This document shows, one piece after another, positions 1 through 32,000 of a stretch of DNA of 32,000 nucleotides. A model generated the notes under the pieces. It did no database searches and was not told the DNA's origin. It saw nothing but the letters and a program-made list of their open reading frames with translations. The translations under genes were made by a program, and so were the position numbers. This stretch comes from Candidatus Saccharimonadota bacterium. GTDB taxonomy: Bacteria; Patescibacteriota; Gracilibacteria; BD1-5; UBA2023. Position 1 is the first letter of the stretch, and each line of letters begins with the position of its first letter. Where the stretch lies: the NCBI GenBank assembly GCA_046350815.1, contig JAXLZO010000001.1:1-32000 (forward strand), written 5' to 3'.

Positions 1-292
1 GAAGGGAAGCAAAAAGCTCCTCAATGAAGGGAAGCTGAGAACGTAGTTCATCTGGCATCTTATCTCGTGTATTCTTGTATGCTTCATAAGTTGAGCTCCG
101 AATCATAGGCCCTGGACCATCATATGCTACAACAATCCCATCTGGTTGATCATCCTGAAGGAGTGAAACAAGAAGTTTTGTCATGCCATAAATCGCATTT
201 ACCGGCATACCAGATTTTGTATGCATTGTAGGTACTGCAAAAAAATTGCGATAGATGAGATTGAAGGCATCAAGTACAAAAAGTTGCTTCAT
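1..292 (-). CDS. polA: DNA polymerase I N-terminal 5'-3' exonuclease domain (5' end of the gene; continues off the left edge)
   Basis: Minus-strand ATG at 292. Translation is MKQLFVLDAFNLIYRNFFAVPTMHTKSGMPVNAIYGMTKLLVSLLQDDQPDGIVVAYDGPGPMIRSSTYEAYKNTRDKMPDELRSQLPFIEELF, the classic Pol I / FEN-like N-terminus. From this fragment I cannot exclude a stand-alone 5'-3' exonuclease. Confidence 0.75.
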   Translation of the reverse strand, partial: MKQLFVLDAFNLIYRNFFAVPTMHTKSGMPVNAIYGMTKLLVSLLQDDQPDGIVVAYDGPGPMIRSSTYEAYKNTRDKMPDELRSQLPFIEELFASL

Positions 293-300
293 AGAAAAAA

Positions 301-1269
301 TTAAGAAGAAATTTTTACCTCTTTTGCCTTTCGTTTGACTATCTTTTCTCATCCCTCAATGTCTTTTTCATACTCACTATGATGTGATGCACGCTTGTGT
401 CTGAGACTCTCGACAAAATAAATGATGTTTTTTTTGCTGCTCGTTGTATTCGAAGCTGGCTGAATGAAGGAGAGATTGACTCGTACATTTTCACCTTCAT
501 AATTAAGACTGATTTTATATTTAAGACCAAAGTATGATTTAAAATTCTCAGCGAGCTTGCTCGTACGTATAGAGAGATGATCATCGAGAAAATGTTCAAG
601 CTTATTCATAAATTCCTGAAAACTTACCTCAAAACGGTTTGAATTATAAAGAATTTCAAGATCAATACGACGATATCATTGACTTGATAGATCTAATCGC
701 TGATTGATTTCCGTAAAGAATTTATAGTTTGGAACATATATTACACGTCATGTATGATTACCACTCTGATCTTTTGCAATCATCGATACATAGAGTGGAT
801 GAATGGCAATAATTTCACCGAGGCATTCCATACTATTGATCGAACCAAATCTCATAATATCACCGATCTTATATCGTGAAATCACATAAAAAAATGCAGC
901 AAAAGAGAGTATCACTTCTTTGAATATCAAAATAATCACTCAAACTCAAACCGCTAACAAATCAAATGCAGATCATGTTTTTTCAGCAAGAAAAACAACG
1001 ATTACAAATACAATAAACGCTATGCGAATAGTATCCAAAATTTGTACTTTCTTATAGTACTCAATATAGAACTCTGCATTACGCTTCTTATTTTGACCTT
1101 CATTTATATTTACTTGCAGTTCCTGCTCATGCTTTGCGTACACTTGTGCCTTAACACGAGCACGATAACGGCGAAGGGTAAAATCTACCGAGAAAGCAAA
1201 AATAAAAAGAATGATAAAAAACCAGTTCGCCCGAACGAATGGAACAAATGTAAGAAGAAAATCAAACAT
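301..1269 (-). CDS. MscS-family small-conductance mechanosensitive channel
   Basis: Track ORFs 973..1392, 748..939 and 349..609 are in one minus frame, joined by TGA codons at 973, 946, 940, 748, 676 and 349. The joined protein has a Gly-rich pore helix (LAVGVGVIIL) followed by YKIGDIMRFGSINSMECLGEIIAIHPLYVSMIAKDQSGNHTGRVIYVPNYKFF, the MscS beta-domain pattern. The true stop is TAA at 301-303. The start is ambiguous (ATG at 1269, 1308 or 1392). I chose 1269 because mltG read through TGA ends at 1280. Confidence 0.7.
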
Positions 1270-1279
1270 AAAAAGACTA

Positions 1280-2380
1280 TTATCGCAAATATTGTTGCAC
1301 CTTAGCATTGTGTTCTTCGAGATTGCGAGAAAGTCGAAGAACTCAATCGTTGTCATGAAGATAATACAAATACTCAGATTTATCTGATGCATCGAGTGAT
1401 GCTCGATATATATCAGCAGTCACGTTTGAGATTGGTCAGCGTGGCAATCATCGAAGAGTACGGGTATTGTACTCATTTATTTCTCGTATATGACTACCGA
1501 TAAAATTTGGAGTGCACTCAGAAGATGTGATTTTATACGCATAACATGTAGTTGCATCAGCTCACAATGCAATATTATTCTTGAGACGAGTTTTTAGTAC
1601 ACTTGCTACCTTAATATAATTAGCAGGATTTCTTTCTTCTTTTTGGAGAATAGATGCGAGAATAATATCTTTTTGAACTGTTTTCTTCTCAGCATCAGAG
1701 AGATTTTGATAGATTTTTTTATGAAATCCTTCAAGTAATTTCATAACGATCGTCTCAAGTGCTGATCCATCAGCAATCTCATGAGTATCCGGATAGAGAA
1801 ATCCTTCAAGTGAATCCATCCCGCGAAGAAAAGGATATTTTGCTGAAAAAAGGAGTGCGAGATTTGCCTGAGATGAGATGAGATCTCATGAAGCAATATA
1901 TCATCTTTTTGTTAGATATGCATCAATGTCATAGATATTCCAACCTGGCAAGATGGTAATGTTCGCAGCCTCGATTGGTTTGGAAGCTGAGAGAGTCTTC
2001 GTAATAAATTCAGAGATGGTAGCTGTTTTATCTACTGGATAGATTCAAGATTTTACAACACTCGGGACATCAGCGATAAATCGAAGATAGTAACGATATC
2101 TCCAGGGTGCAACCTTATCTTTGAATGGCTTATTATCAATGAGTGTTGAGAGTGTCTCTCATGGTGGAATCTCGATTCTGTTTGTATCCAATACGATACT
2201 ACCAACCTGAACAATACTGATATAAAAACCGAGAGAGAAAAGGAAAGAGAAAAAGAGAAAGAAACGTAGAAAATAATGCGATTTTTTTTTCTTGAGAAAA
2301 GCCCTTGGGTGATGAGTCTCAAGGGGAATTCGATGAAAAGTTCATTTTGCTTGCTTACGCCGTTCTATCGAGTTATTCAT
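1280..2380 (-). CDS. mltG: Endolytic murein transglycosylase MltG/YceG
   Basis: One minus frame runs from ATG 2380 to TAA 1280-1282 when TGA is read as Gly. It has an N-terminal TM helix (FFLFFSFLFSLGFYISIV), then ITILPGWNIYDIDAYL, LEGFLYPDTHEI and ILASILQKEERNP. The signature NEYNTRTLR-G-LPR-G-PISN has both glycines of GLPxGPI encoded by TGA (1448-1450 and 1436-1438). Confidence 0.85.
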
Positions 2381-2769
2381 GTGAAAGTTTTAAGATCTTG
2401 GTAGCTCTTTTGTACTTTTTCTACATTTTCATTCAATTCAGCCACATTGTCTTTGAGTTCTTTTGCCTGGTTTGTTTTTTCAACAGCAACACCAATCCAG
2501 CTATCTAATGTTTCTTTCGTATCTTTGAGGACACCTTGCGCCTGTGTAATAATACCAGATTGGGTTATGCTAGTCAAAGTTGATCCTGATGACTCATTCG
2601 GTGTCGACATAGCGGTGGATTGATGGATGAACGATCGAATACTGCTACCAATATTCAATGCACCACTTCCTCAGATTCGATAGGAAAAAGTATCAGCAAC
2701 AGCTGGTGCAAATATGATCAAACCAAGAACAAGAACAAGAAGAACGATAAGGAAAGAAATGAATTTCAT
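2365..2769 (-). CDS. Hypothetical small secreted or membrane-anchored protein
   Basis: ATG at 2769. MKFISFLIVLLVLVLGLIIFAPAVA is a signal peptide or TM anchor. Two in-frame TGA codons (2671, 2377). Stop is TAG at 2365-2367, overlapping the mltG start by 16 nt. No family recognised. Confidence 0.5.
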
Positions 2770-2774: not shown

Positions 2775-3143
2775 TTATTCTCAAGATGAACCAGCAAAAA
2801 GATCACTCACAGACTCAATAGCACGAATTTCGTGATGAAGAGAGCGAATCATAGAGTCATTGATAATATTTTTATCCATACGATTGGATCATTGACTCAT
2901 AGCTGAACTCATAGTATTGGTAAACGTAGCATCAGATGATCACGGAACACCAGGAAAAAACTTAAGTGTCGCCTGAATATCTGTGCGTCGATGGCATGAT
3001 GGACATTCAACAGCAAGAGCAATACCCTCCTGTGTTAGACCCGTAAGAAAAAGATTATTATCCTTGATACGAGATTGACAGTGTGGGCAAGCAAAGGTTG
3101 TTACTGCATTGGCAAGAATGGTCTTAAGTACGAGGTAGTTCAT
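2775..3143 (-). CDS. Hypothetical zinc-ribbon protein (CPHC...CPSC)
   Basis: Translation begins [55 protein letters not shown], with two CxxC pairs. It continues through TGA at 2940, 2889 and 2781 to TAA at 2775-2777. The start overlaps the gltX stop by 20 nt. Confidence 0.45.
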
Positions 3144-4620
3144 AGGAAGATTTGAGAAAATTATAAGCACCATTGAGACGTGCAAGACTTTCGCTCATTC
3201 CAAGGATAGAAATCAGTTCGAATGCACCAGGAGAAAATTGTTCACCCGAAAGTGCTACACGGACTGGATAGAGAATTTGACCATTTTTCAGACCAGAAGA
3301 TGCAATTTTCTCAAGAAATTGTTTTTGCAATTCCTCAGCGGAAGCATGAGAAGATGTTGTGAGAATATCTCTTGCAAAATCAATTGCCATGAGAACTTCC
3401 TCAACACTTGTTACTTTCATTTTTTCATTACAAAATGTCTCGAGTACATAGTGTTCTGGGCGAATATAACAACATTTTGAGAGTTCGCTAAATTGAGAGA
3501 GTGTTGGTAGCCTCATTCCCACTTCTGCAATAACCTTCAAGTGGTATTCTCGATCAAAACTTATCCATGTAGTTGAAGCATATTCATTCTGATACTGCTT
3601 GAGATATGCATCGAGACGATCATAGAGTTCATCTCTGCTCAATTTTGCAATATATTTGCCATTCATCCATGTGAGCTTTTCCATATCAAATATCGCACCA
3701 GCTTTCTGAATATTCGCTACATCAAATCGTTCGATCAGATCCGAAAGAGTGAAAAATTCTTCTGTGGTCTTTGGATTCCATCCAAGAAGAGCAATGTAAT
3801 TAATGATTGCTTCTACAAGGTATCACTTTTCGAGAAAATTATCAACACTTACGTCACCATTTCGCTTTGACAATTTCTTACGATCAGTTCCCAGTATAAG
3901 AGGAAGGTGTCCGTACCGTGGCAATTCAATACCCAATGCTCGAGCGGTGAGAACTTGTTTTGGGATAGATGATATCCACTCTTCACCACGAAACATATGT
4001 GTAACTTTCATAGCATAATCATCCAATACAACTGCGCCATGATAAGTGGGTATGCCATCTGTTTTTAAAAGCACCTGATCCTCCACCTCATTCGTAGCAA
4101 ATTCCAATCGTCCGCGAATCATATCATCAAATATAATTTTTTCTCCCTTTGGTACTTTGAGACGTATAGAATAACTCTCACCCGCATCAACTCGTGCACG
4201 CGCCTCATCATAGGGAAGTTCCCTATCTTTCGACTGAAAATGGGTGGGGAGTCAAAGAGCTTCTTTTTCAGCACGATCAGTCTCTACCTCCTCAATCGTC
4301 GCAAAACAATAGTATGCAAATCCATCTGCAACCATCTTATGAAGATGTTTTTGGTAAAATTCGATGCGTTCTGATTGGACATATGGTCAATTGGGTCCGC
4401 CTATGCCATATCATTCATCAGGAGTACAACCAAAAAGCTTCAGAAGTCGCAGAAAATTATCACTCGCTCACTCGACAAATCGAGTCCGATCTGTATCTTC
4501 GATTCGGAGGATAAAAGTTCCATTATTTTGCTTTGCGAGCAAATACGAATAAAGTGCTGTTCGAATCGAACCAATATGAAGTGGGCCTGTCGGGCTCGGC
4601 GGAAAACGAGTAACAATCAT
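3124..4620 (-). CDS. gltX: Glutamyl-tRNA synthetase
   Basis: ATG at 4620. [55 protein letters not shown] carries the HIGH motif. PDEGYGIGGPNGPYVQSER has conserved glycines supplied by TGA. Also present are [18 protein letters not shown] and KLSKRNG (KMSKS-like). Track ORFs 3823..4122 and 3124..3684 are the same frame. Stop is TAA at 3124-3126. Length is 1497 nt. Confidence 0.9.
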
Positions 4621-4676
4621 AAAAAACAAAATCATAGATAGTGCACATTATAGCAAATTTCCTTAAAAAATCGAAT

Positions 4677-6197
4677 ATGTTTATAACCCCCCTTGGACAT
4701 ACGGAATGCCTCATCGAAATTCCCAATAATAAGAACGAACTTGTTCGTATTCTTGTTGACAGTTGGTTTTCAGATGTATGTGTTGGTGATCTTATGGCTC
4801 GGCGCGAGCGAGTCAGATTCGATTATGACACGCTTCCAAAAATTGATTATATTTTTATTTCACACAGTCACCTTGATCACCTTGATCCGTATTTTCTTAC
4901 AGAATTTTTTAGATACCAATCCCCTACTCTTTTGATCCCAGAGACATGTCAATTTGTCGTGGATATTCTGAAAAAATACCTGCCGGAGGTAAAAGCGATG
5001 ATCATGAGGAATAATGAAAAAATACAGAAGGATGGGGTCACTATTGAATGAGTGATCTGGTCAAGTAATGATGTAGGTAATGAAGAAGATGTTATGACGC
5101 TCTTTGTGAGCAATAGTGAAAGCATGGTCTATCATGAGATTGATACAAAAACACCTTTTAATGAAAGTGAAAGACAACTTCTCGAGAAAAAAATCACTCC
5201 TCACAGATGAAAATCCCTTCTCCTCATAGAATCAGGAAACGAGATTGAGACACAACTACGATCTCTTGAGACGATAAAAATGAGTGAGAGATGAGATATA
5301 GTAAAAAATGCCGAAGAAATATGGAGTGAAAAAATCTCCGAAGAGTGGCAGTACCTCCATGACTATGAACTTTATGATCCTCGCTATGAATCATGTGTCA
5401 CTCGAGCATGGATCGGACAAGGTATCACTGTTCCTCGCGAAATAGACGAAGGACTTTCAAATTTTCATCCACTCCCCCTTTCACGCATCGCGAGTGTCGA
5501 ATCACAAACACTCAAGGGACAAAAATTACCAAAGTCATCGTTTGCTCTCTTGCCAGGCAAACGATATGAGCTCATGAAAAATTCATGACTCAAAGAAATT
5601 CCAACAATCAAAAGCATCAAAGTGGAGCTCTATAAAACGAAGGCTGATTATAAGCACCTTGGATTTCTTGAAAGATTGCCATGACCAGCGCTTGTATCAC
5701 AAAGAGAAGAATATATAAATGATGATATTTTACTCGAACTAATCAATCATCGCTTTCTCCCATTTGGGCTCGCATCTGCAAACGATCCACTCAAGGCAGC
5801 CATCCTCTCATCGAATGATCATCGCTATCGCATTGCTTTCAAGACGCGAAATGGTGATATCATTGCAGTCTATGGATTCTCATGGGCAACCGGTAAATAT
5901 GCACGAGAAGAGAAGATCGTCGAAATTTCTCGAATAAGTGAGATATATTTTCTCGATGATATAGCTGATTTTCTCGAAGGAAAGCAAGAGCTTTATTCAG
6001 TATTTGTGCACGAAATGCAGAGAGGAAAATCCTATAGACTCTGGAATATACTCGGTGCTAATTTTATCAATACTGATCTTCTCGTGAAGAAATACAGCTA
6101 TCATTTTGAGCGAGCAAAACAATGATGGAATAATAAAGAACTCAATGAAGAACTTTTAGAGATATATCAGAGGAAGATCAAAGTTATAAAAAAATAA
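4677..6197 (+). CDS. MBL-fold metallo-hydrolase with a long uncharacterised C-terminal extension
   Basis: Start MFITPLGHTECLIEI is a typical MBL N-terminus. The HxHxDH motif appears as ISHSHLDHLD. The frame continues through seven TGA codons (5049, 5208, 5292, 5586, 5682, 6123 and one more) to TAA at 6195-6197, giving 506 aa. I checked codon by codon and found no in-frame TAA or TAG. Confidence 0.75.
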
Positions 6198-6488: not shown

Positions 6489-6911
6489 ATGGTCTCACTC
6501 AATTGGCTTGAGATTATCGTTATTACGATTGGAATATTTGTTATTGGAAATTTCTGGTTCGGACCGATCTTTGGAAAAACATGGATGAGAATCCATCATG
6601 GAAGCGATAGAATGTCAGAATCTGAGATGAAAAAGGCAATGAAGGGGATGTGGAAACTCATGTTTACTGAATTCATTGCAACTTTTATTATGGTAATGAC
6701 ACTCGAATTTTTGATACAAATTCTTCCAAGTTATTCTGGCATACACATTGCATTCATAATATGGCTTGGCTTTATTCTCCCCATGACAGCAAGTAACGTA
6801 ATATGGGGAAACGACAAAAAAGAATGGATGTGTAAGAAAATCGCTATTGCCAGCAGCTACCGACTTGTTACACTGCTTGCAGCTGGATATATTCTGAATA
6901 TTTGGCAGTAA
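6489..6911 (+). CDS. DUF1761-family membrane protein
   Basis: Intact in any code. MVSLNWLEIIVITIGIFVIGNFWFGPIFGKTWMRI matches the DUF1761 N-terminal pattern (NWLAV...FLWYGPLFGKAWM). About four TM helices. Stop is TAA at 6909-6911. Confidence 0.75.
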   Translation: MVSLNWLEIIVITIGIFVIGNFWFGPIFGKTWMRIHHGSDRMSESEMKKAMKGMWKLMFTEFIATFIMVMTLEFLIQILPSYSGIHIAFIIWLGFILPMTASNVIWGNDKKEWMCKKIAIASSYRLVTLLAAGYILNIWQ

Positions 6912-7358: not shown

Positions 7359-7871
7359 CTACAAAATCACTTTCTGAATATCCGATCGAATAAGTTCGAG
7401 CACATTATGAGACAATTGTTTCTTGGGATATGGGGCATAATTCCCATCTGGACGGGGATCGGAAAATTCTTCACCATAAGCAGAAACAGACCTTTGTTTT
7501 GGTATCAAGTGCGCATGCAAATGTAGAACAGTGTTACTCAAAATAGCAATGTTTGGTCGAAACTCTCACCAGAGAATTTGATTCGCTCTCGACCAGATAG
7601 GGATAATAATATCGAAGAGCTCATTTCTTTCATCATGCGTTATACTAAGTAATCTCTCAGCATTTTCACGTCTTGCCCAAGCATAACAACGCCCTAAGTA
7701 CGAATATTTTCTGCATGAAGAAAAAGATCCCAATATTGCAAATGTAGCATATTGATGCGAAGATGATCGTAGAATCCATGAGAAACTACTTATACACCAA
7801 GAAAAATTCTTCCTGACCAGGCTTATACGATCAAAAATCCCCAAGAGCACTTTGAAAATATTCACCACCAA
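7359..7871 (-). CDS. HIT-family nucleotide hydrolase/transferase
   Basis: Track ORFs 7566..7871 and 7359..7541 are joined by TGA at 7566. The sequence is YLGRCYAWARRENAERLLSITHDERNELFDII...ILWGEFRPNIAILSNTVLHLHAHLIPKQ, containing the histidine triad HxHxHxx. Stop is TAG at 7359-7361. The start (TTG or GTG near 7871-7863) is uncertain. Confidence 0.7.
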
Positions 7872-8604
7872 TAATTTTCTGAGGAAAAAATTTATTTATT
7901 ACACCATTGATGCGATTTTCTCATGATCCTACAAGTATACCTGTTGAGCTATTGGAGAGATCAAAGATCGATCCAGAGGCATTCGAAAAGAGATTGATTA
8001 GGAGATTACTCGAGTTATTATGTGAAAGATTTGAATCAAGTGTAAGATTGGAAGAAAAAGCACTATAAGAACGCTCCAAACGAATCCCTTCAAAATTGAT
8101 ACGGCCAAGATGATCTGAGTATGCAAATCCATGAAGCATGCCATCACTTTCACAATAATATACTCCGTCATCTTGGGGATTATCAAGTCGAATATATCAG
8201 AGTGGTGAGACGCTCGACCCAACGTTCCCAAGAGATCGAACAAATCACGAGAATTTATACCCAAATCACTGACTACAGAGCGGGGTAGATCCAGAAATAT
8301 GAGCACCTAAATTTGTATCACTCCCCCAGTCAAAAACAAATGGACCATATAGCGTATTGATAAAGTATCATCCGAGTCGATTATCCATCGTTGTTGCATC
8401 CCCATTGGTATTGATATACTTGGTAGCACCATTATCAGACGGAGAAAAAATCACTTGTGATCCATTCGATCCAAATGATCCTGTGGACGAGGCAAGTGAG
8501 ATCGTTGTATCCAGAGCAAGAACAGAACTTGGAGGTAATCACACAAATGTAAAAGAAGCCAAACAAAACCAAACGGTAATGAGTCGAATGAATAACGAAT
8601 TCAT
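7786..8604 (-). CDS. Secreted hypothetical protein with G-x-aromatic...G-(W/Y/R)-I-x-F type repeats
   Basis: ATG at 8604. Signal peptide is MNSLFIRLITVWFCLASFTFVGLPPSSVLA. There is a single frame through TGA at 8539, 8368, 8266, 8248, 8200, 7921 and 7831. Repeat-like segments are GGYFINTLYGPFVFDW, FSGFVRSLGNVGSSVSPLGYIRLD and LHGFAYSDHLGRINFEG. The first true stop is TAG at 7786-7788. Confidence 0.6.
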
Positions 8605-8658: not shown

Positions 8659-9432
8659 ATGAGAAAAAATATGCACCAGAAAAAATGAGGATTCACCCTC
8701 GTCGAACTCGTTGTAGTAATTACCATTCTTGGGATACTCTCTGCAGTTGGATTCAGCTTCTACGGATGATACCAAGCATCTGCCCGTGATGCTATTCGCA
8801 GTGCTGATATGGCGAACCTTGAAACTTCTCTTTCCGAAACAAAGAGATTGCGTGGATCATATCCAACACCTATCAATCCACTCGAATTTAGCTGGAGCGG
8901 ACAAATTGTTGCACTTCAGGGAAGCATAGATGAAGATACGGGAATAAATAATATTCCAAGTGATCCTCTTCTGCATCGATCATACACATACAGCACATCT
9001 CAGAAGAGACATCAATACATGCTTGCGGCGACTCTTGAAGCTGCCTATGCACAAGAATCAACCTATCTGCGAACCAATTATCAGCGTGCGAGCGTTGACA
9101 TTCTCCCATCTCTTGCATATGCAACCACCGGCACAGGAGAGATAACAACGATAAAACAAACGGCACTCCTTGATAAATCTCTAAAAAATATCCCCTACAT
9201 TCTCAGAAAAGATGATGTTAATGTTGGGCAACCAAAATCAACTGCAACCACATATGAAGACATACTCACTCAAACCAATCCTCAGGTAAAGGAGCTTCCG
9301 AAATATATCTCCGACAGCTGTAGCGAGCTTGGACTGCATCTTGCTTATATTGGCACTGGAAATTATTATCTACGTGATGCAAGTGGAGCAACAGTTGTTG
9401 GGGAGTGTAACGATACATCGGTCAGTCAGTAA
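8659..9432 (+). CDS. Type IV pilin / pseudopilin with a prepilin N-terminal cleavage-methylation domain
   Basis: Translation begins MRKNMHQKK-G-GFTLVELVVVITILGILSAVGFSFYG-G-YQASARDAI. The leader glycine before FTLVE is TGA (8686-8688). It is in the same frame as track ORF 8809..9432. Stop is TAA at 9430-9432. Confidence 0.85.
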
Positions 9433-9493: not shown

Positions 9494-10465
9494 ATGATTG
9501 AAATGTTTCCTATACCGGGTTTCTGATGAATGCAAGTGGTAGGGAATTTTCTCTCCTTTGAGATTTATGTATTCATTTTTGTATGCGTAAGTCTTTTTTT
9601 ATTTCTCAAAGCACACACCTACAAAGATATCCTCTTCGCAGTCATTGCGGTCGGACTGTATAAATATCTCACGCTTTCACTCTTTGGAAATTCTACCTGT
9701 ATGTGTTCTGGGAACACCTATCCAGACGTAAGCGTGATCAATATTTTTATTGGCATGCTCGATGTAGGAACACTACTAATTGCAAAGTACCTGAGCGAAC
9801 GATGCAAGATGAATAGAAAATATCGTTTTACTTTGCTTCTCCTCCTTACGTACTTTATCTTTCTCGTCAATGAGATGATCATACAATCCATGGGGATCAG
9901 ATCATACACAGAAGATATCTCCAATCTTCTTTCACAGAGTACATTTTTGATGCTCCCAATTGAGAATATACCCTATATTCTGGCGGTTGCATTTTATACA
10001 GTTGGCATATACAGTTTTCTCGAGAAAGTGGACCAAGCAAAGACGAAAAACGTACCACAATCATCTTTCACAAAAACACTCTGAATATCGATTATATCAG
10101 TATTCGCACTCCAAATCATCGTACATCCTATTTTCTTGGATACGTGACTTCCTGAATTTACGTACTTGTATCAAGATATTAACTGGCTTGTGACGATCCT
10201 CTGGTCACTTGCGATCGCAACCATTCTGACACTCATAGGAAAAGGAAGATTTGATATTTACCAAGACTTGATCTGTTCATTTTTTGGTATCCTCATCTTC
10301 AATCTCATACTCTTTATCGTTCTTTTTCAAATCGGTATTTTGCGTATCGCTCCAAGTGTGAACGACTATCTCTGGGGTATCAATTTTTTTGGTCTTCCGA
10401 TCGAAGCAATAACAGGACTTACCATTGCCACACTTATAAAAGTACTTTGCATAAAAAGATTTTAA
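9494..10465 (+). CDS. Polytopic membrane protein, possibly two tandem lycopene-cyclase-type domains
   Basis: Track ORFs 9530..10084 and 10166..10465 are in one frame, extended upstream to ATG 9494 through TGA TGA (9524-9529) and joined through TGA at 10082 and 10145. There are two copies of a hydrophobic ...LPIE... motif (FLMLPIENIPYILAVAF and FFGLPIEAITGLTIATL), resembling the PxEE motif of CrtYc/CrtYd-type cyclase domains. Confidence 0.6.
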
Positions 10466-10478
10466 TATCATTGCTCCT

Positions 10479-11327
10479 ATGAAAAACAATTTCTTGCTCG
10501 GGCTCATATCATGAATCATCATCATCCTTGTGTATAAATTCTGATTATTCGGTCTTCTATCAAGCGAAACATCATTCAAAATGAGTGGGGTCGAACCACG
10601 ATATGTGAGCCATTTTCGCTATACTCCTATCTACAAATGAGAAGAACAAGGCACACTATCAACAGGATGAGAGCTCTACAAAGAAAAAATCAAGGCAATG
10701 CTTCCAAAAATTGAATCTCTCTTGGGTAGATCCATGAATAATGAATCAATCCACCTCTCTATAGCAGATCTTGGCAATTTTCCTATTCTCATCAAGGTAT
10801 TGGAAGGTAAAATTACCATTATAGAAACATCCGAAAAAGATTTCTCGCCAAGTATTGTCTTTCGTGTACAAAAGGCAGATATTGACGGATTGGCTTTCTT
10901 TCTCCAAGATTGAAAACTCAATGCGGAAGAGCAGCTGAAAGTTGCCGATGTTATACTTCCTGCAATGACTGAGAGAGTCTATCGAACAAAAAAACTCTAC
11001 AAACATGGAAGTCTCTCCGCATTCTGATTCGATGATCTCATGCAAATCGAGATCAAACACCCAGAAGGCATCAATCGTCTCAGCGTTCCATTGAGTCTTC
11101 GTGTAACAATAGCTAATATCGATGGACAATGGATAGTCACACCATGATTTGTGGGTGATCCTGATGTTCGTTTCTCTCTTAGCCTCGAGGATGCACTCAA
11201 GATATATCAGCTCATCACCATAGATCTTGAAAATGCCGAGACGAAACAAACAGGGATCGCGGTAGGGAAAGATATATTTGCGATTCTCTCAGAGAATCAA
11301 ACCTATGTCAGAAAAGACCATGAATAA
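10479..11327 (+). CDS. Hypothetical membrane-anchored protein
   Basis: ATG at 10479. The TM helix is MKNNFLLGLISGIIIILVYKFGLFGLL. The frame was checked through TGA at 10512, 10542, 10638, 10668 and further TGAs to TAA at 11325-11327. The stop overlaps the next gene's start (ATGAATAA). I preferred this to the 167-aa antisense standard-code ORF 10746..11249. Confidence 0.6.
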
Positions 11328-12120: not shown

Positions 12121-12123
12121 TCT

Positions 12124-19046: not shown

Positions 19047-19051
19047 AGAGT

Positions 19052-21224: not shown

Positions 21225-22394
21225 TTACCAAAACACATCCTTAAAAGCAATCAAAACGCTCAGGATCATCAAGAGAATGAATCCGAATCCATGGTAGTAT
21301 TGAGCAAATTGTTCATATTTTTTTGGAGACATACCACATATTCTCAGAAGAGAAGCAAACGCCTCCTCAACGATGCGACCGCCATCAAGCGCTGGGAATG
21401 GAAGAAGATTAAAGAATCCTATGCTGATCGAGAGAAGTGCAGCAAATATTATATAGATCTGAAATTCAACATTTCATACAATAAGTGAATGTACTCATTT
21501 TCAAGCTGCAATCGGTCCACCAAGTGACTCTACTGCCTCTGCACGTTCTTCACTATTCTTGGGTGCAACAATGCGTTTTGCAAGCGTAGCAAGTGACTCT
21601 CACGCTATACACACCTGATCATACGTCTCCCGAAATCCTGCTTTTATTGCTTCGAACAATGACATTTTATAGCGAAAATCTTTCTTGTAATCTAGCTCTT
21701 TCCAAGAAATATAGCTTTGAATTTTCCCTTTATCATCTTTTTGCACCGCTAATTCTGTGAGTGTGCCAGATTGAAAAATCTGCATTGATATCATATTACC
21801 AGATTTTGCAACAGCGCTAAGAGCTTGTTCTGGAGTTGATATACTCATTCCATTAACAGCAAGCAATGTTGATCCAGAAAGAACTCATGACCGCATAGCA
21901 GAACCTCAATCGAGTGGATTCAGAACAACACCACTTGCAGAAATAAATCCAGATTGTTGAGCCTGAGTAAAAGATGGAAAAAGAAGTGATGTTCTCTCAA
22001 ATGGCAGATGTGAATTATGAATCATGAGTGGTGAAACTCCCGAGAAAAATAATCATGAAAGTATTACGCCTGCAAAGAGAAAATTGAAAACAATTCACAT
22101 AATCAACACCCATATCTTTGTGAAGAGTGACTTTGATCGGAGACTTTTCGGTCATCGCTCTTCTGGGGTTTCTCCTTCCAATCGCACAAAACCTCAAATT
22201 GGCAACCAGTTGAGTGTATATTGTGTACCGTATCGATCTTTTCCAAGAATCTTTGCTTTTGGAGGAATGCCAATTCAAAATTCTCGCACTCGAACACCGA
22301 CCGATCGAGCAGCAAGAAAATGCCCAAGCTCATGTACGACAACCACGAGAAGAAAAAGAACAAGAGTAACAATGATAGAAAAGAAAATCAACAT
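21225..22394 (-). CDS. rseP: RseP-type site-2 zinc metalloprotease (M50) with a PDZ domain
   Basis: ATG at 22394. MLIFFSIIVTLVLFLLVVVVHELGHFLAARSVGVRVREF-G-IGIPP carries the HExxH motif. NWLPI-G-GFVRLEGE matches PLGGYV. The PDZ region is track ORF 21600..21866. The C-terminal motif is FFNLLPFPALDGGRIV. Stop is TAA at 21225-21227. Length is 1170 nt. Confidence 0.9.
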
Positions 22395-24052: not shown

Positions 24053-24439
24053 ATGACAAATATCAAACTTCACCAAAAGGCAATCATCTTCAATCACGAA
24101 GGTAAGATTTTAACGCTCAAAGCAAGCTACAAATGACTCAAATGGGACCTACCAGGTGGTGGACTGGAATTCCCAGAGCTTCACGAAGAAGCACTCAGAC
24201 GTGAAATCAGAGAAGAAACAAGTCTCGAAATACAAAATATTGTTCCGCTCGAAATACAGAATGTCTACAACAAAGAAGCCGATGAATATATGATCTTCAT
24301 CGGTTATAAATGCTGAGTTCTATCCGGATCAATCAAGCTTAGTTCAGAGCACTCCGAATATAGATGGGTAACCAAGGATCAATTTCTCACTCTGGATGCA
24401 ATACCATATCTCAAAGATTATGTAGCAAAGTTTTGCTAG
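24053..24439 (+). CDS. NUDIX hydrolase
   Basis: The Nudix box is PGGGLEFPELHEEALRREIREETSL (GX5EX7REUXEEXGU). Two in-frame TGA codons. Stop is TAG at 24437-24439. Confidence 0.85.
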
Positions 24440-24488
24440 TCTTAAATCCATTATTATTATCAAAGTAAAAATTAACATTACGTTTTAT

Positions 24489-24764
24489 ATGACCGATAAA
24501 GAAGATCCAATCGTTCCCCTGTTTATTCCGAGTCTTGTTGCAAAATTAAAAGCAGCTGAAGATAAAAAGGGTTCCTCTCTGACAGAAGAAGAAGTTATCA
24601 ATATGAGAGATATTTCAATTGCCGTAACAGTGCCATTGACAATTCGCAATGAAATTTGGGAATCTCGTGGTTATAATGATATCAGTGTAGAAAACTGTTG
24701 GCAAGATTGGTGTGAAATAAGAAAAGAACTACTCAACTATGATACAACAAAAATGGCACTTTAA
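24489..24764 (+). CDS. Hypothetical protein (91 aa)
   Basis: The ORF is intact in any code and is followed directly by a strong hairpin. No family recognised. Confidence 0.5.
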   Translation: MTDKEDPIVPLFIPSLVAKLKAAEDKKGSSLTEEEVINMRDISIAVTVPLTIRNEIWESRGYNDISVENCWQDWCEIRKELLNYDTTKMAL

Positions 24765-24804: not shown

Positions 24805-26853
24805 TTACTCATCCTTCTTCAGCGATACATTCATACGAAAGATCGTATCATCACTCACATAGCGACCCTTTACCGCTGAGAGACAACGAGTGACATTTGC
24901 ATGCCAATTCTTACTCGATGAGGCATAGATTGGTCAGGTAAGATTGCCATAGCGAGAGAGCTCTGATACCTTGGTATAATTCCCGAGATATCGGTTATTG
25001 AGCGTCTTTGCCATCATTCGTACTCACGTCTGTGGAGAACTAAATGTTCGAACATCCCCACTATCGGTATTACCGATATTACCAACATTGTATCCCGTCT
25101 TGAGATGACGACCCAGTCCTGTCTCAGCAAGACCAACACACATCATAAATGCAGGGTCAATACCACCAGCAAGTGACTCATCCGTCCACATATCCCAATT
25201 CTGGAAGGCTGGTGTTGCATACGTGTTGAGAAGGTATTTCTGACGATCAACTTCTGTTGCACCACTGAGCATAAACGTGCTTGGCGAATCCATCTTCGGC
25301 GCTGATCCAAACCGAGCAAAATAATCAGCGGCATATTTATCAAGATATCGCTCAGTGAGTCATTTTGGTTCAAGATTCGAGATATTCATATATTGGAGCG
25401 GATCGACTGCTTCACCATCTTTGAACACCTCAAAATGAAGATGGGGACCAGAAGTCATAGAGCCAGCACCAACTGTACCACGTGCCCCACCACTCTGTGC
25501 GATAATTTGTCCGCGCTGAACTACATCAAATTTTGATACATTCACGCTCGAGATATGACCATATACGGTCATAAATCCATTCGGATGTTTGATCGCAACA
25601 TATCCATATCATGTCTTCGTTGGAGGGTTGATATAGTAGACATATCCATCCGCTGGAGATAAAATATCAGTTGACTGAGCCACAGGGATATCGATCGCAT
25701 CATGATGCGATCCGAGCGCTTCGTAATACTCACTGTCGTGAAAATAACTTGAAATTCTTGAACTTGCAACGGGCCAAGAAAGAGGGTTACTCGAGTCATC
25801 AGCCATTGCAGAAGTCATGATTTTCTTCTCTGCCTCAAAATACGATGCGAGCGTTACACATTCAATACTACTTTGAGCATCGAGCACAATCGATGCTTTT
25901 TCATTCACACTACATCATTTTACTGCAGCAATTTCCTCAAATGTCTTCTGATAAACATTACTGACTTCTGAGAGATGCGCAGAGAGTTTTTCACTCGATT
26001 CACTTCGTTCAATGATGAGAGTATTAAGTTGTGATTCATCATCTTTTGCCTGTGTAAGAAGAGCTTCTTTATAGTCTTTTTGATCATCGAGAGTGATCTG
26101 ATAATTCTCGAGGTCTTTCTTTGCCACCTCGAGGTCTTCTTTTTGCTTTTGGAGACTGAGGTTCTCCTGATAGAGTGCTGCGACCGCACTACGATAATTA
26201 TCGATAAATTCTTTACCAGCGAGCTCGAGCAATGCTTGAGAATAAATGTCATCGAGCACACGAGCAACATCATTGGAATTCATCACAATCGTCTTGAGAA
26301 GATCAACATCCTGATTTTTTACATCAAACACAACATCTCATTTCGTATAAATAACTTCAAGATATTGAAGGAGGATCGCCTTACTTGCAGCTATTTTTTC
26401 CTGAAGTGCACTCACTCGATTTTGAGTCGATCTTATATTTGCCTCGATACCGACACTGTCACGTTCACGTTTTTCGATCTCAGTCTGAGTTAAGCTCATA
26501 TCTTGTTCGATCTGAGCAATAGCATCCTTAAGACTCATTTTCTTTTCAACAACATTTCTCTTCATTTCCTTATACTGATCTTTTGTTTCATTGACACGAT
26601 TGAGCATTTGTGCAAGTGTATTTGCTTTGCGCTCCGCAAGAAAGAGTTTCTGTTCAACTCATTGAGGGAAAGGGGATGTCTCAAAAAGGAGTACTTTTTC
26701 TCATTCTTTAAAACGATCAAGAATAACCGCAGATCTTGATTTCTCTATACTGACAAAATTCTCAGCAAAAAGAGATACTGGAAAAATATGAGCTAGAGAT
26801 GTAGCAATCAAAGTATATGAGAGAATATTGAGAAGAAGAAGGCGATTTTGCAT
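24805..26853 (-). CDS. Secreted multidomain cell-wall hydrolase: signal peptide, long coiled coil (EnvC-like), M23 peptidase and a C-terminal glucosaminidase-like domain
   Basis: Six track ORFs (26701.., 26338.., 25915.., 25609.., 25360.., 25024..) all lie in one minus frame, separated only by TGA. The signal peptide is MQNRLLLLNILSYTLIATSLAHI. M23 motifs are HDAIDIPV, G-YGYVAIKHPNGFMTVYGHIS and GPHLHFEVFKDGEAVDP. The C-terminal domain reads VGLAETGLGRHLKTGYNVGNIGN...PIYASSSKNWHANV. Stop is TAA at 24805-24807. Confidence 0.85.
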
Positions 26854-26909
26854 GTCTGAGAAAGTGTATATACTCCAGCCTATCATATACACCCCACATC
26901 TGACAAATT

Positions 26910-27386
26910 ATGGAGCCACTTATTTCAAAATTCTATTGACAGTCAAAAAATCAAATTTATAAAGATATTTGAGAAGAAACATTAGAGTCTATCGCCTGTT
27001 CACTCGCACAAGAACTCAAGGAAACCTGAGGAAAATATATTATCGGTCTCAAGTGAGATCTTGGCATGGGTAAGACAACATTTGCTCGTGCGTTCATACG
27101 ATCCTACGAAAACAAGCCAGACCTTGAGGTAACAAGCCCAACCTATACCTACTACAAGCTTTATCCGAATGTCACACACTTTGATCTCTATCGTCTCGAA
27201 GAGTACAATAATTTTGTTGCACTCTGATGAGAAGAATACCTCGACCAAGCACAAGTTGCACTTATCGAATGGTCAGATCTCATAAAGGATTATTATAGTT
27301 TTGATATCTTGATTGAGTTGAGTGGTGAGAGGGATGGAAAGAAGAGGGATGTAGCTATAAATCTTTCGAGAAGTTTCGTAGCTTAA
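26910..27386 (+). CDS. tsaE: tRNA t6A37 biosynthesis ATPase TsaE (YjeE)
   Basis: Motifs are IIGLK-G-DLGMGKTTFARAF (P-loop, TGA at 27054-27056), VTSPTYTYYKLY, HFDLYRLEE and VALIEWSD. Stop is TAA at 27384-27386. Confidence 0.85.
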
Positions 27387-27435: not shown

Positions 27436-28156
27436 TAGGGTCTAGACTAGCAAATTTTTAAAAATAGCTTTTTTTGCGAGTCTGAAATTTTTATAATTGT
27501 ATCGAAATTCGCACCCTTTCAAACGAAGATGAAATTTATCTGGGGCAATCCCATTAAACTTTGCCATTCTTCTTTTGCAGAAACTCCAGAAAGATTCAAT
27601 ACCATTCACATGATTCTTTCCTCTGGCAAACTCATTCTCACTGTGAAATACCCTATAGTGATCATATCCATTTAAAACAAGAGAATCATATGCTTTCCAT
27701 CCATCCGTATAGATGGTAGATCATTCCAGTATTTTCCCATGAATAATTGGCATAAGTTCACTTCTGGAGCAGTTCTCTACAATACTTACAAATACTCTTC
27801 CATCTCGCTTGAGAAGTCCAAACACTGGTGTTTTTCCTGCAGCTCACCTTCCTCTTTTTCATCTAACCCGACGAGCACCAAAGTAACTTTCATCCAGTTC
27901 AAATTCTCATCAGAATTCATACCTTTCTTTGAAACTCTTTGATTCCTCAATGGAAATTCGCACAATAGCCTCTCGAAATCGGTTATACCAAAGATTCACA
28001 CTATTACGATTTATCCCCATAATTTTTGCTGTCTGAGTAGCAGTAAAATCCTCAAAAAAATAGTAAAAAATTCTTCAAATTTTATAAGTCGATAATTTTG
28101 TGTATTTGATCATAAGCAAATAGTGTAAGAAGTACTATTTGCTAGTCAAGACCCTA
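27436..28156 (-). mobile_element. IS1595-family insertion sequence (about 721 bp) with 20-bp imperfect terminal inverted repeats
   Basis: IRL is TAGGGTCTAGACTAGCAAAT (27436-27455). The reverse complement of IRR (28137-28156) is TAGGGTCTTGACTAGCAAAT, a 19/20 match. The repeats enclose a single transposase gene. I could not identify a target-site duplication. Confidence 0.8.
27442..28113 (-). CDS. IS1595-family (ISXO2-like DDE) transposase, intact under code 25
   Basis: The protein (223 aa) contains F-G-G-EFELDESYFGARRVR-G-KRGR-G-AAGKTPVFGLLKRDGRVFV...STIYTDGWKAYDSLVLNGYDHYRVFHSENEFARGKNHVNGIESFWSFCKRRMAKFNGI. I scanned every codon. There are six in-frame TGA codons (28075, 27910, 27907, 27859, 27844, 27721) and no TAA or TAG until 27442-27444. 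Confidence 0.85.
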
Positions 28157-28526: not shown

Positions 28527-29564
28527 CTATCTCCAAAATCTCATCCACCTTACGATCCACAACAAATAATATTTCCAAGAAAGTATTATCATGCATCCCT
28601 GGGGAAATCTCACCACCTCCCCACCAAATCGAGATTTGAAGAAGCTAACACCTGCAAGATGATGTTTTTTCTGGTTTTCTGGAGCGATCCCGAGAAAATC
28701 ATAGATTTTCCGACCTGTCTCCATCGCATATCAAATCATCGCTCACTGTATAACAAAACTGGCCATCAATTTCTTCGCCTCACTCTCCCCAGCTGATGCA
28801 CCGTAATAATAATACGCCATATCTCAACAAGCAATATAGAGAGCACTCGCCAAAGGATCAGTGTATGATGGATGCTTTGCCTCAAAAAGACGTACCTCTA
28901 GAGCATCTGACTGCAAAGATGCTAGTGCTTCAAACATCGAACGTGAATTAATCGAGAACCCATCTCGCTTTGCTGTGTCTGCAAGGAGTCAGTAAAATCA
29001 ATTAATATTTTCCATTGAGAATAAGCGATTGGATACAGTGACTCAACGTTTTTCACCAAGACGTAGATTATATCGACCTTTTTCATGCATGTTTGCAAGG
29101 ATCGTCTCATATGAGTCATCAAGACGAATAATTCGTGTATATGGTTCGATAAATTTCTTCCAAAATCACTTTTTCACGTTTTCTTGCTTGAGTAGTATAT
29201 CTTCAACGTCTCATTCAAGTGGTTCAAATGAAAGAAAAACTAATCTATGCTTGAGAGACCAAGATTGCAACTCTTTCATATGTTCTGCAAAAAACTCATC
29301 ATCATTTCACATCACGATCGGACCGCCAATCACAAATCATCCATATTGCCCAAGTCCTATTCTGCGAATCTGTAGAGCACTCCATATTCGACATCCTGAT
29401 CATTCTGAAAAAAGAATGATACTCTCACTCGTTGCATCACCCGCATTGATCACCATTTGTTGCCATTCTTTCGTTTGCCAGAGAGAAATATTATCCAAAT
29501 GGATTGACAGGAGAGCTAAAGAAGTTTTGTTATAAAATTGATGTTTATACTTTTTTATGCTCAT
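28527..29564 (-). CDS. FemAB-family aminoacyl-tRNA-dependent peptidoglycan peptide-bridge transferase
   Basis: The frame runs from ATG 29564 through about 12 TGA codons to TAG at 28527-28529. Motifs are WQTKEWQQMVINAG, KGRYNLRLGEKR-G-V, YYYYGASAGE, FVIQ-G-AMI-G-YAMETGRKIYDFLGIAPE and GVSFFKSRFGGEVVRF (compare Gv..FK..fGG). Confidence 0.78.
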
Positions 29565-29597: not shown

Positions 29598-29981
29598 ATG
29601 AATGTAATGATTTTTTCCAAATATATGAACACTCCTATAGAAATTAAAAGCAAGAACGAACAAGGCGCTATGGTATTTGAATTCCATGGTGAACTTGATG
29701 AAACTAATGCTGACAAGACATTTACTGATATCTATAGCAGTATAGGTGATTTTAAATCCAAGAAAATCATCTTGAATCTTGTCGAACTCAAGTATCTCAA
29801 CAGTAAATCCATCGGATATATCGCTGATATTTTCTCCAATCTTGAAGACGTCGGATCAAAGATGGCACTCTCCAATATTCTTCCAGAAGTTCATGACACA
29901 CTCGAACTCGTTGGAATCCTCCAAATTATCCCAGCATTTGCGAGTGAGCAAGAAGCAGTTGCTTCATTTGTTGCGACATAA
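29598..29981 (+). CDS. STAS-domain anti-sigma-factor antagonist (SpoIIAA-like)
   Basis: The sequence is FEFHGELDETNADKTF...KIILNLVELKYLNSKSIGYIADIF...ALSNILPEVHDTLELVGILQIIP, with the conserved phosphorylatable-Ser context (LNSKSIG). It has no TGA. An alternative start lies at 29625. Stop is TAA. Confidence 0.78.
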   Translation: MNVMIFSKYMNTPIEIKSKNEQGAMVFEFHGELDETNADKTFTDIYSSIGDFKSKKIILNLVELKYLNSKSIGYIADIFSNLEDVGSKMALSNILPEVHDTLELVGILQIIPAFASEQEAVASFVAT

Positions 29982-30051: not shown

Positions 30052-30340
30052 AGATCCTGAACTAAATTCAGGATGATAAAATACAACTCCCCCCTACTCG
30101 TAAACTCATTTTTTCCTCATTGAGGGGGATCAAAGTTGAAGTTCTTTATTTCTTCCCCTCTTGAGGGGTGCCGAAGGCGGGGTGGCTGTATTTTTGCCTG
30201 AGTCATTTCGAACAAAGTGAGAAATCCCTTCGAATTACCTTTCAGTGAGAATATTATATATAAGGGATCTCTCCTAATGTCGAGATGACGAATATAGAAG
30301 AAAAAGTAGGTCCCCTTATCTACGCGAGGATAACAAATTC
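30052..30340. repeat. Cluster of GC-rich hairpin repeats of the same family as at 6238-6418
   Basis: The elements are AGATCCTGAACTAAATTCAGGAT (30052-30074), TCCCCC...GGGGGATC (30089-30131), CCCCTCTTGAGGGG (30155-30168) and GCCGAAGGCGGGG (30170-30182). There is also an inverted pair, GTCATTTCGAACAAAGTGAGAAATCCC (30202-30228) and GGGATCTCTCCTAATGTCGAGATGAC (30264-30289), and TTATCTACGCGAGGATAA (30316-30333). Confidence 0.45.
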
Positions 30341-30354
30341 ACCGCAAAGAATCC

Positions 30355-31671
30355 CTACCGAAGTTCTTCAAGAACTTTATCTCGAATAGTATAATTTTCG
30401 TATATTTTTTGAAACATACTAACTCATGGAGAAACAACAGAATTAACCATCATCATTCCAACAACATTCTTTCGTTGAAATATGGAACCAAAACTTTGAT
30501 CTATAGAATATTCTTCCATAAAAGGCATATACGCTTTTCATTTGAAAAAACCCGACCACTCAAGACACCGCCATGAATCTGCTGGTAAATTATCTTGTCC
30601 ATAGAGAATCTGAAAATAGCAAGCATCAAGCATTTGTTGTGTCTCTCTTCGATCCAGAGTTAGACGACCAAACCACTCGCTCAACACATCTGAATCACGG
30701 GTCCAATCCTGTGGCACACCTGCCAGATCAAGCGTTTGATTCACTAGTTCATTCGTCTGATAATACTCAAACTGCCATGCACGCTGCTTTAAATCTTCCT
30801 TAGAGACGATAGGCACAAGGAGTATTTCTTTGATTTGAGACCTTGAAACATCAGACAATTCAATGTTATGAAGGATATAAGAGATTAAATTGAGACTGTA
30901 TTTCTCAGAAGCTATCATAATCATAGTTGGAACCATATTCGTCGTTCCTTCTTTCATTTTTTGACTAAATCAGTAGAGAAAGAGAGTTTTTCTCACGCAA
31001 TCATCCTCTCGATCTGCAAGACAATCCAGAAGTGCACTATAGCTCACATTTCTCGCAAATCTCTGTATTCACTCCTGAGGCATGCCCAGAGTCAAGAGAG
31101 AATCTTTATCACGAATATCAATTTTTGGAAGAACGGGAACAAATTGATATTGACTCATAATTTCCTCCATCTTTGGTATGATCTCATCCAAAGATGTGTT
31201 CAATATGTCAAAAGATTGTTGGTATTCTCCGGAGAGATATTGAGACTGAATAATGCGAATTTCATCAGGCGTTATGAAACGATTTTTTGGTGAACGTGCA
31301 CCAAAAGGCTCAGAAGAAAAAAGAACATTTCGAGAAACACTTCAATTATCAATATCAACGCTCGTACTTCCACCAAAAAGAAGATCTGATCATTCCATTT
31401 GACATATTTTCTGATCAATATTTATTTCGCTACAATGCTTCTTGCGAATATTCTGAAATTCCTCAGAGTAGAGCTTCTGGATAAGAAGATAACCATTTTG
31501 ACCATCCGGAATTGGTTGTACCTGAGGCATAAGAGATCCTGTATCCACATCAGGAATATTGAGATCCACATTGGAATTCCAAGCAAAAATACCAAGCCAA
31601 ACGACAAAAAGAAGAGCTGGAAGCATCAAGAGAACGATTAGGATTCTTTTAAGAATTTTCATACAAAACAT
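30355..31671 (-). CDS. Hypothetical membrane-anchored protein (438 aa) downstream of pilT
   Basis: Track ORFs 31390..31671 and 30538..30957 are in the same frame. The 430 nt between them were translated codon by codon (TGA at 31390, 31342, 31069, 30970) with no TAA or TAG. The frame continues through TGA at 30538 and 30424 to TAG at 30355-30357. The N-terminal TM helix is MKILKRILIVLLMLPALLFVVWLGIFAW. Confidence 0.6.
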
Positions 31672-31681
31672 ATATTATAAA

Positions 31682-32000
31682 CTACATCACACCATCACGA
31701 ATCATCTGTGGGTTATTTGCATACTTGAGAGCCTCATCAAGAGTGATTTCTCAGAACTTCACTGAATCAATAAGATCATGTTCCAGCAGCTGCATTCCTT
31801 CAGTTCGTCCTGTTTGCATGACGGATGGGAGTTGATGAAGCTCATTTTCACGAATAAGATTCGCGACCGCGGCATTACGAATAAGTATCTCTTTTACCAT
31901 TTTAACACCATATTGATCTTTTTTGAGAAGGAGACGTTGACTAAATACCGCTACAAGTGCTTCAGCAAGTTGCACACGAATTTGATTCTGTTGATCACCT
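31682..32000 (-). CDS. pilT: Type IV pilus retraction ATPase PilT, C-terminal part (5' end lies off the window)
   Basis: The sequence is GDQQNQIRVQLAEALVAVFSQRLLLKKDQYGVKMVKEILIRNAAVANLIRENELHQLPSVMQTGRTEGMQLLEHDLIDSVKF-G-EITLDEALKYANNPQMI, a typical PilT/PilU C-terminus. Stop is TAG at 31682-31684. Confidence 0.85.

Follow-up and report, generated by a model that had tools for sequence, protein, structure and literature searches.

The reading of UGA as glycine instead of stop (genetic code 25, translation table 25) has been known since 2013 and is textbook knowledge, and the reading of UGA as tryptophan (translation table 4) is known in the Mycoplasmatales and in several insect endosymbionts. 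UGA encodes glycine in the Gracilibacteria and Absconditabacteria, where the tRNA with a UCA anticodon was classed as a glycine tRNA by G1:C72, C2:G71, G3:C70 and U73 (PMC8629427). In BD1-5 genomes prfA was present, but prfB, the gene encoding release factor 2 (RF2), was detected in none (PMC6851277). The same paper cites proteomics of a BD1-5 enrichment as experimental validation of the glycine reading (PMC6851277, citing PMC4032931), and the title of the cited work announces proteomics and UGA recoded to glycine in a BD1-5/SN-2 bacterium (PMC4032931). Here we report on the codon UGA in a 32-kb stretch of DNA, positions 1 to 32,000 of contig JAXLZO010000001.1, the whole of which is called the window below. 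With a probability of about 0.96, the window represents ordinary chromosomal DNA from an uncultured Gracilibacteria-type bacterium (BD1-5-like, Patescibacteria/candidate phyla radiation (CPR)) that uses translation table 25, with UGA encoding glycine.

The GC content of the window was 38%, and an Rfam search of the window matched no family. Coverage by open reading frames (ORFs) was defined as the share of the window taken up by non-overlapping start-to-stop ORFs of at least 100 amino acids (aa). With TAA, TAG and TGA as stops (code 11), coverage, mean length and longest ORF were 32%, 137 aa and 207 aa, respectively, and the longest code-11 ORF counted from stop to stop was 232 aa. With TAA and TAG as the sole stops, the corresponding values were 80%, 326 aa and 695 aa. 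Reading through TAA (stops TAG and TGA) gave 47%, 150 aa and 240 aa, and reading through TAG (stops TAA and TGA) gave 44%, 140 aa and 307 aa, respectively; the longest ORF in the shuffled-sequence control was about 160-220 aa. Candidate ORFs were translated with TGA as X so that no meaning was presupposed. Twenty of these ORFs matched Pfam families, most of them above the Pfam thresholds, and each domain formed one unbroken stretch across several TGAs. The tRNA-synt_1c match of the glutamyl-tRNA synthetase GltX ran across TGAs from model position 2 to 314 of 314, and the YceG and Peptidase_M50 matches covered model positions 3-275 of 275 and 2-219 of 221, respectively. Other families matched with TGA as X were adh_short, Radical_SAM (two proteins), CDP-OH_P_transf, UbiA, PEP-utilizers, NUDIX, Peptidase_M23, TsaE, DDE_Tnp_IS1595, FemAB and STAS.

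Across 31 genes with 9,302 codons, TGA occurred in frame 164 times (1.76% of codons), and TAA and TAG never did. TAA terminates 21 genes and TAG nine, and all 30 complete genes end as expected. The genes are whole only if TGA is read through; UAA and UAG are the sole stops, and UGA is a sense codon, which as glycine makes up about 27% of all glycine codons in the window. An initial annotation, made from the sequence alone, had assigned code 25 to the window and is supported in this by the rise of coding coverage from 32% to 80%. All ten sets of coordinates that it quoted for TGAs in conserved motifs proved to mark TGA or TGATGA, in frame with the gene around them. Its statement that the genes end in TAA or TAG was correct for every complete gene, and homologues do not stop at the TGA sites, given that the Pfam domains run through them. 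The number of genes, put at roughly 40 in that annotation, was lower, about 35, including smaller genes backed by public gene calls on syntenic contigs.

To assign a residue to TGA, eight window proteins were aligned to PDB homologues from standard-code organisms, and the alignments were tabulated by script. At 50 TGA columns with 103 non-gap cells, G was found in 52 cells (50%), W in one (1%) and Cys in none. The same alignments showed 63% G at window GGN columns, 43% W and 7% G at window TGG columns, and 0-9% G at columns of the other 18 amino acids. A collection scan with the GltX alignment provided 80 gltX genes from diverse bacteria, which were reused as an independent control set; the scan gave standard-code bacteria only, because its tblastn confirmation uses code 11. 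In these 80 proteins, the five TGA columns contained 79.6% G and 0.3% W. The 28 GGN columns contained 67% G, the four TGG columns 68.5% W, and the remaining columns 1.9% G. The initial annotation had described the TGAs as coinciding with invariant glycines. This was borne out at the GGE motif of the Radical SAM/SPASM protein, where PDB homologues have G at both TGA positions, and at the P-loop of TsaE, where they have G in the TGA column, but the first TGA of the pair in the short-chain dehydrogenase/reductase (SDR) and the TGA of the prepilin, at position -2 of the leader, are variable.

Scores against Pfam ranked G above X and X above W at the TGA positions in all five families tried. With TGA as G, X and W, the scores were 160.2, 141.5 and 131.9 bits for YceG, 115.5, 94.0 and 84.5 bits for adh_short, 77.1, 66.6 and 63.2 bits for Radical_SAM, 150.8, 140.0 and 138.2 bits for Peptidase_M50, and 93.6, 88.2 and 86.5 bits for TsaE, respectively. 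With TGA as Gly, Gly and Trp would account for 6.45% and 1.10% of residues, respectively; with TGA as Trp, for 4.69% and 2.86%. The comparisons with homologues show that the residue at TGA positions is glycine.

Exchange of codons between relatives is a test independent of any translation table. L013, a JGI metagenome contig, is syntenic with window positions 1-13 kb at about 81-87% nucleotide identity, and its proteins are 70-92% identical in amino acids to those of the window, depending on the gene. Window TGA codons corresponded in L013 to TGA, GGN, TGG and other codons in 49, 8, 0 and 5 cases, respectively, while TGA codons of L013 corresponded in the window to GGN, TGG and other codons in 14, 0 and 6 cases. 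There were thus 22 exchanges between TGA and GGN and none between TGA and TGG, and TGG itself was kept at 43 of 43 positions. Many exchanges were from TGA to GGT, GGC or GGG and required two base changes each, the behaviour of a synonymous family. The gltX genes of three named Gracilibacteria/Altimarinota genomes contained 17-21 in-frame TGAs, and at their 53 aligned TGAs the window had GGT or GGA in 32 cases, TGA in 10 and TGG in none. TGA sites were conserved at 49 of 62 positions in L013 and at 91 of 93 positions in L007, a contig of an NCBI metagenome-assembled genome (MAG) that is 99% identical to the window. L008, a Logan contig that was assembled independently, matches the window at 100% identity along 12,976 bp. 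Substitutions between relatives lie mostly at third codon positions, indicating purifying selection. Two window proteins free of TGA are found in identical form on many public contigs, and samples with identical contigs include SRR26348422, ERZ650281 and JGI 3300056789.

CGA and CGG were examined because the Absconditabacteria have reportedly moved both codons to tryptophan (PMC8629427). CGA was common, with 44 of the 3,844 codons aligned to L013, and aligned with Arg (47% R over ten GltX columns). CGG exchanged only with the Arg codons CGT, CGA and AGA and with Gln; its meaning rests mainly on codon exchange, since GltX offered just two CGG columns. No exchange of CGA or CGG with TGG was seen in comparison with L013. 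CGA, CGG and UGG keep their standard meanings; this is table 25 without further changes, the pattern of most Gracilibacteria.

Tryptophan at UGA, as in table 4, has to be considered because the ORF structure is the same under tables 4 and 25, and read-through alone cannot separate them; public pipelines have put W in these very genes (P0001, P0003, P0005 and P0154), and the gTranslate preprint (2026) describes the first UGA-to-Trp cases in the Patescibacteriota. Homologue columns, codon exchange, Pfam scores and composition refute this reading, which we regard as extremely improbable. W occupied 1 of 103 PDB cells and 0.3% of the GltX cells at TGA, compared with 43-68% at true TGG. TGA and TGG never exchanged although they are one base apart, compared with 22 exchanges of TGA and GGN with L013 and 32 with the three distant genomes. 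Substituting W gave lower Pfam scores than X did in all five families, and Trp would have to reach 2.86% of residues. A mixed use of UGA, mostly as glycine but terminating some genes, or decoded ambiguously as Gly or Trp owing to wobble at the UCA anticodon, is harder to address by such comparisons, which reveal the selected meaning and not the fidelity of decoding; a potential for ambiguous reading of UGA and UGG by a U34 tRNA has been described (PMC8629427). Two ORFs end in TGA-TAA (14665-15333 on the plus strand and 22780-23592 on the minus strand), and this TGA either encodes a glycine at the C-terminus or survives from an ancestral TGA stop, with TAA as its backup. We nevertheless consider mixed use very unlikely: domain matches and orthologue alignments run past every TGA examined, TAA or TAG stands at the expected end of 30 of 30 complete genes, UGG columns stay Trp, with UGG conserved at 43 of 43 positions, and prfB is reported absent from BD1-5 genomes (PMC6851277).

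The standard code, with the TGAs as stops in decayed pseudogenes, as sequencing or assembly errors or as selenocysteine sites, would fit the code-11 annotation of related NCBI MAGs, which yields short "hypothetical proteins" (P0147, P0148 and P0151). It can hardly account for 164 in-frame TGAs against no TAA or TAG in 9,302 codons, nor for the retention of TGA sites in L007 and L013, and these two observations refute it. The identity of the independently assembled L008 also speaks against sequencing or assembly error, and the third-position bias of substitutions speaks against pseudogenes. As for selenocysteine, the residue aligned with TGA is G and never C, and 1.76% of codons is far above any selenoproteome. 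The chance that the standard code applies is negligible.

Glycine at UGA, the reading that we prefer, would be achieved by a dedicated glycine tRNA with anticodon UCA, and the recoding would have been enabled by loss of RF2 (prfB) with release factor 1 (RF1) kept; both steps are taken from published work on the clade. Several observations weigh against this reading or narrow it. ARAGORN detected no tRNA gene in the window, and none in 13 related loci, comprising eight near-identical contigs, two syntenic JGI contigs and three gltX loci (21 kb each, from named Gracilibacteria/Altimarinota genomes), so that the decoding machinery, both the tRNA-UCA and the loss of prfB, is presumed by analogy with the clade. 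In distant homologues, about half of the TGA columns have a residue other than G, which is close to the 37% found for true GGN columns. One TGA column of RseP has S in homologues ("FS(I/V)GFG"), one of the M23 peptidase has F, and one of MltG has Q in 3 of 3 PDB homologues (the "LQ(T)DPT" stretch). The MltG site reads NIAL-TGA-ADAT (1568-1570 region), so that a position with Q in all three solved homologues would be G here under table 25. Single TGA sites are therefore not individually proven, and glycine in this organism is a reading based on sequence comparison. Placement in the code-25 clade likewise draws on best matches and database names and not on a tree.

An exact-sequence look-up found the window proteins in identical form in a MAG that NCBI lists as "Candidatus Gracilibacteria bacterium" (locus tags U0518_; contig of 1,283,673 bp). 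Its protein MFO0763244.1 equals the window GltX and has G at all five TGA sites; therefore, the source record is already in table 25. The nearest other named GltX proteins, with 47-55% identity, came from Gracilibacteria, from Altimarinota (the NCBI name of the same phylum as Gracilibacteria) and from "uncultured bacterium (gcode 4)" genomes of 2012, while GltX of standard-code bacteria was at most 44% identical to that of the window. A scan of genome contigs with RseP found no relative. The assignment to "Gracilibacteria or Absconditabacteria" in the initial annotation thus agrees with these names for the Gracilibacteria, while the extended Absconditabacteria pattern was not seen, CGA and CGG being Arg. 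It is unlikely, if less so than any of the rival readings of the codon, that the organism falls outside the code-25 clade as now recognised (GTDB class JAEDAM01: BD1-5 and Absconditabacterales). Bearing on this are the GltX identity of at most 55% to any named genome and the three labels under which NCBI genomes with the same gene are filed, namely Gracilibacteria, in table 25, and Peregrinibacteria and Peribacteria, both in table 11 and yielding fragments. If the lineage did belong among the standard-code "Gracilibacteria/Peribacterales", glycine at UGA would be wider, or would have more than one origin, than currently assumed.

Recoding of UGA to glycine is already known and the source genome is already deposited with glycine, and the value of the result is practical: analyses of the window or its relatives must use table 25. 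The initial annotation had warned of mis-annotation, and such records exist in the same 90%-identity cluster as the window GltX and in its neighbours. P0001, P0003, P0005 and P0154 (Logan, JGI and ENA gene calls) are table-4 copies with W at the TGA sites, where glycine is conserved, while P0147, P0148 and P0151, filed at NCBI as "hypothetical proteins", are 99, 55 and 50 aa long and end just before a TGA. The GltX fragments MCA9377394.1, MCB9804319.1 and MCA9377396.1 are from MAGs labelled Candidatus Peregrinibacteria or Peribacteria and annotated with table 11 (locus-tag prefixes KC711_ and H6769_); for these MAGs, the label and the translation table are probably both wrong. For this lineage, records with W and fragments skew protein families, predicted structures and taxonomic profiles. 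A different irregularity was seen in gltX of the JGI contig L014 (P0005), where about 40 residues (approximately residues 90-135) are unlike those of the window and L013 before the protein returns to register. This stretch resembles a compensated double frameshift and is probably an assembly error in the contig.

The genes of the window are listed in Table 1.

Table 1. Genes and other features of the 32-kb window, with in-frame TGA counts where available; evidence scores marked X were obtained with TGA translated as X.
Feature	Position	Strand	Evidence
5'-3' exonuclease, N-terminal part; extends past left edge	2..352	-	Pfam 5_3_exonuc_N E = 2e-26
Membrane protein, no family assigned, 7 TGA, start codon uncertain	301..1476	-	ORF, codon score; 87-90% identical orthologue in L013/L014
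MltG/YceG-like endolytic transglycosylase, 366 aa, 9 TGA	1280..2380	-	Pfam YceG (X); PDB alignments
TGAs of MltG motif G-LPR-G-PI (in 1280..2380)	1448-1450, 1436-1438	-	
Small membrane/coiled-coil protein, ~134 aa	2365..2769	-	ORF; 134-aa gene call in L013
Possible small zinc-ribbon protein, uncertain gene	2775..3143	-	Sub-threshold zinc-ribbon matches only
Glutamyl-tRNA synthetase GltX, 503 aa, 5 TGA	3124..4635	-	Pfam E = 1e-90; PDB matches
Metallo-beta-lactamase-fold protein, 6 TGA	4677..6197	+	Pfam Lactamase_B_2 E = 1e-8
DUF1761 membrane protein, 140 aa, no TGA	6489..6911	+	Pfam; exact matches on public contigs
HIT-like small protein, 1 TGA, weak assignment	7359..7780	-	Pfam HIT E = 0.007 (sub-cut-off); 140-aa L013 gene call
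Secreted protein, no family assigned, ~270 aa, 7 TGA	7786..8604	-	ORF; 268-aa L013 gene call
Type IV pilin-like protein, N-terminal methylation motif, 2 TGA (one at 8686-8688)	8659..9432	+	Pfam N_methyl E = 1e-7
Four co-directional genes, including SDR	9494..12879	+	
Polytopic membrane protein, 4 TGA	within 9494..12879	+	
282-aa protein without family, 7 TGA	within 9494..12879	+	
251-aa protein without family, 3 TGA	within 9494..12879	+	
SDR oxidoreductase, 9 TGA (TGATGA at 11356-11361)	11305-12120	+	Pfam adh_short (X); PDB alignments
Radical SAM protein, 5 TGA (A-G-GEP TGA at 13270-13272)	13063..14178	+	Pfam Radical_SAM E = 4e-18
CDP-alcohol phosphatidyltransferase, 8 TGA (14357-14359, central G of DGx2ARx8Gx3Dx3D)	14087..14764	+	Pfam E = 7e-13; motif read from sequence
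Membrane protein, 197 aa, 7 TGA, and UbiA-family prenyltransferase, 285 aa, 6 TGA	14740..16184	+	Pfam UbiA E = 4e-11
Phosphoenolpyruvate (PEP)-utilising (PEP synthase-like) enzyme, 647 aa, 6 TGA	16190..18133	+	Pfam PEP-utilizers, PPDK_N; NCBIfam
309-aa protein, acetyltransferase-like RGK-G-YG motif, 5 TGA	within 18117..20131	+	Weak matches
PlsC-like acyltransferase, 359 aa, 9 TGA (FPE-G-G TGA at 19916-19918)	within 18117..20131	+	Weak matches
Radical SAM/SPASM protein, 8 TGA (TGATGA of GGE motif at 20523-20528)	20037..21179	+	Pfam 66.6 bits (X)
RseP/M50 site-2 protease, 389 aa, 11 TGA	21225..22394	-	Pfam (X); PDB alignments
Protein without family, 2 TGA	22457-22840	-	Orthologue in L007
Membrane protein without family, 267 aa, 3 TGA	22780-23583	-	Orthologue in L007
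NUDIX hydrolase, 128 aa, 2 TGA, and 91-aa protein, no TGA	24053..24764	+	Pfam NUDIX; exact public matches
M23 peptidase, coiled-coil region, glucosaminidase-like domain, 693 aa, 8 TGA	24805..26886	-	Pfam; PDB matches
TsaE (N6-threonylcarbamoyladenosine (t6A) biosynthesis ATPase), 8 TGA in long ORF (P-loop TGA at 27054-27056)	26817..27386	+	Pfam 88.2 bits (X)
IS1595-family insertion sequence, 718 bp	27438..28155	-	Pfam DDE_Tnp_IS1595 E = 1e-27
IS1595 transposase, 6 in-frame TGAs	27442-28113	-	
FemAB-family peptidyltransferase, 11 TGA	28527..29564	-	Pfam FemAB E = 3e-25; PDB matches
STAS-domain protein (anti-sigma-factor antagonist type), no TGA	29598..29981	+	Pfam STAS E = 1e-16
438-aa protein without family, 6 TGA	30355..31671	-	ORF; absent from L007 (blastn gap)
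PilT/T2SSE-type ATPase, C-terminal part, 1 TGA; extends past right edge	31682..31999	-	99% identical to L007 T2SSE end

Two small genes also separate gltX from yceG in L095 and L097 (L097 10001-13287 and L095 10001-12260, compared with window 1280-4635). The order gltX, two small genes, yceG/mltG is common to an Altimarinota genome whose GltX is only about 51% identical, and in HOT-871, too, gltX is followed by two small genes. This shared layout supports the window ORFs in 2365-3143 as real genes. A search of the unannotated window proteins against NCBIfam gave no match at the curated cut-off. Two names proposed in the initial annotation proved weak. The protein called GNAT had no Pfam match with TGA as X and a weak rimI match (E = 1.4e-4) with TGA as G, and the name PlsC is sub-threshold, at 20 bits against a Pfam cut-off of 23. 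The top NCBIfam similarity of the CDP-alcohol phosphatidyltransferase was to pssA/archaetidylserine synthase, below the cut-off.

About 13 co-directional, tightly packed genes occupy 9494-21179 on the plus strand. They encode membrane proteins, the SDR, two radical SAM proteins, the CDP-alcohol phosphatidyltransferase, the UbiA prenyltransferase, the PEP-synthase-like enzyme, the acetyltransferase-like protein and the PlsC-like acyltransferase, which has a faint N-terminal match to CDP-archaeol synthase. The region looks like a membrane-lipid or lipid-linked-glycan cluster, the specific matches being far below curated cut-offs, and such a cluster would be unusual for a CPR bacterium.

The IS1595 element is complete, with 18-bp terminal inverted repeats (GGGTCTAGACTAGCAAAT and GGGTCTTGACTAGCAAAT) and a flanking direct repeat of about 6 bp (ATGCTA), and is absent from the otherwise 99%-identical L007. 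With six in-frame TGAs, its transposase could be expressed only in a host that reads UGA as sense. Diverged IS1595 copies (about 53% amino-acid identity) adjoin gltX in L013 and L014. Window positions 30067-31674 (1.6 kb, with the 438-aa gene), which lie between the STAS gene and the gene for the PilT-type ATPase, replace 271 bp at L007 14852-15122 and are a strain-level indel. At L007 8286-9110, corresponding to window 22780-23583, a public gene call gives a plus-strand protein of 274 aa. Of the 73 nucleotide differences from L007 in this stretch, 49 fall at third positions of the minus-strand frame, and the differences change 20 amino acids on the minus frame versus 52 on the plus frame; therefore, the minus-strand gene for the 267-aa membrane protein is the real one. 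The divergence of this region from L007, about 9% compared with about 1% elsewhere, suggests a recombined allele.

Compared with table 4 of the Mycoplasmatales and insect endosymbionts, the window likewise reads through UGA and has the same ORF structure; however, table 4 inserts Trp, while the tests on the window all give Gly and exclude Trp. RF2 loss has been proposed as the enabling step in table 4 clades, as for table 25. The extended code of the Absconditabacteria (Shulgina and Eddy 2021, PMC8629427) shares UGA as Gly with the window but has CGA and CGG as Trp. Both codons are rare there, with fewer than 37 CGA and mostly fewer than 7 CGG per 10,000 (PMC8629427), whereas in the window CGA is common and encodes Arg. 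Table 25 of the Gracilibacteria (BD1-5) and Absconditabacteria (SR1) in GTDB class JAEDAM01 matches the window in frequent glycine-aligned UGA, in UAA and UAG as stops, in low GC content and in CPR-type gene content. Nothing in the window differs in kind from this system; its lineage is distant from the named table-25 genomes, with GltX at most 55% identical.

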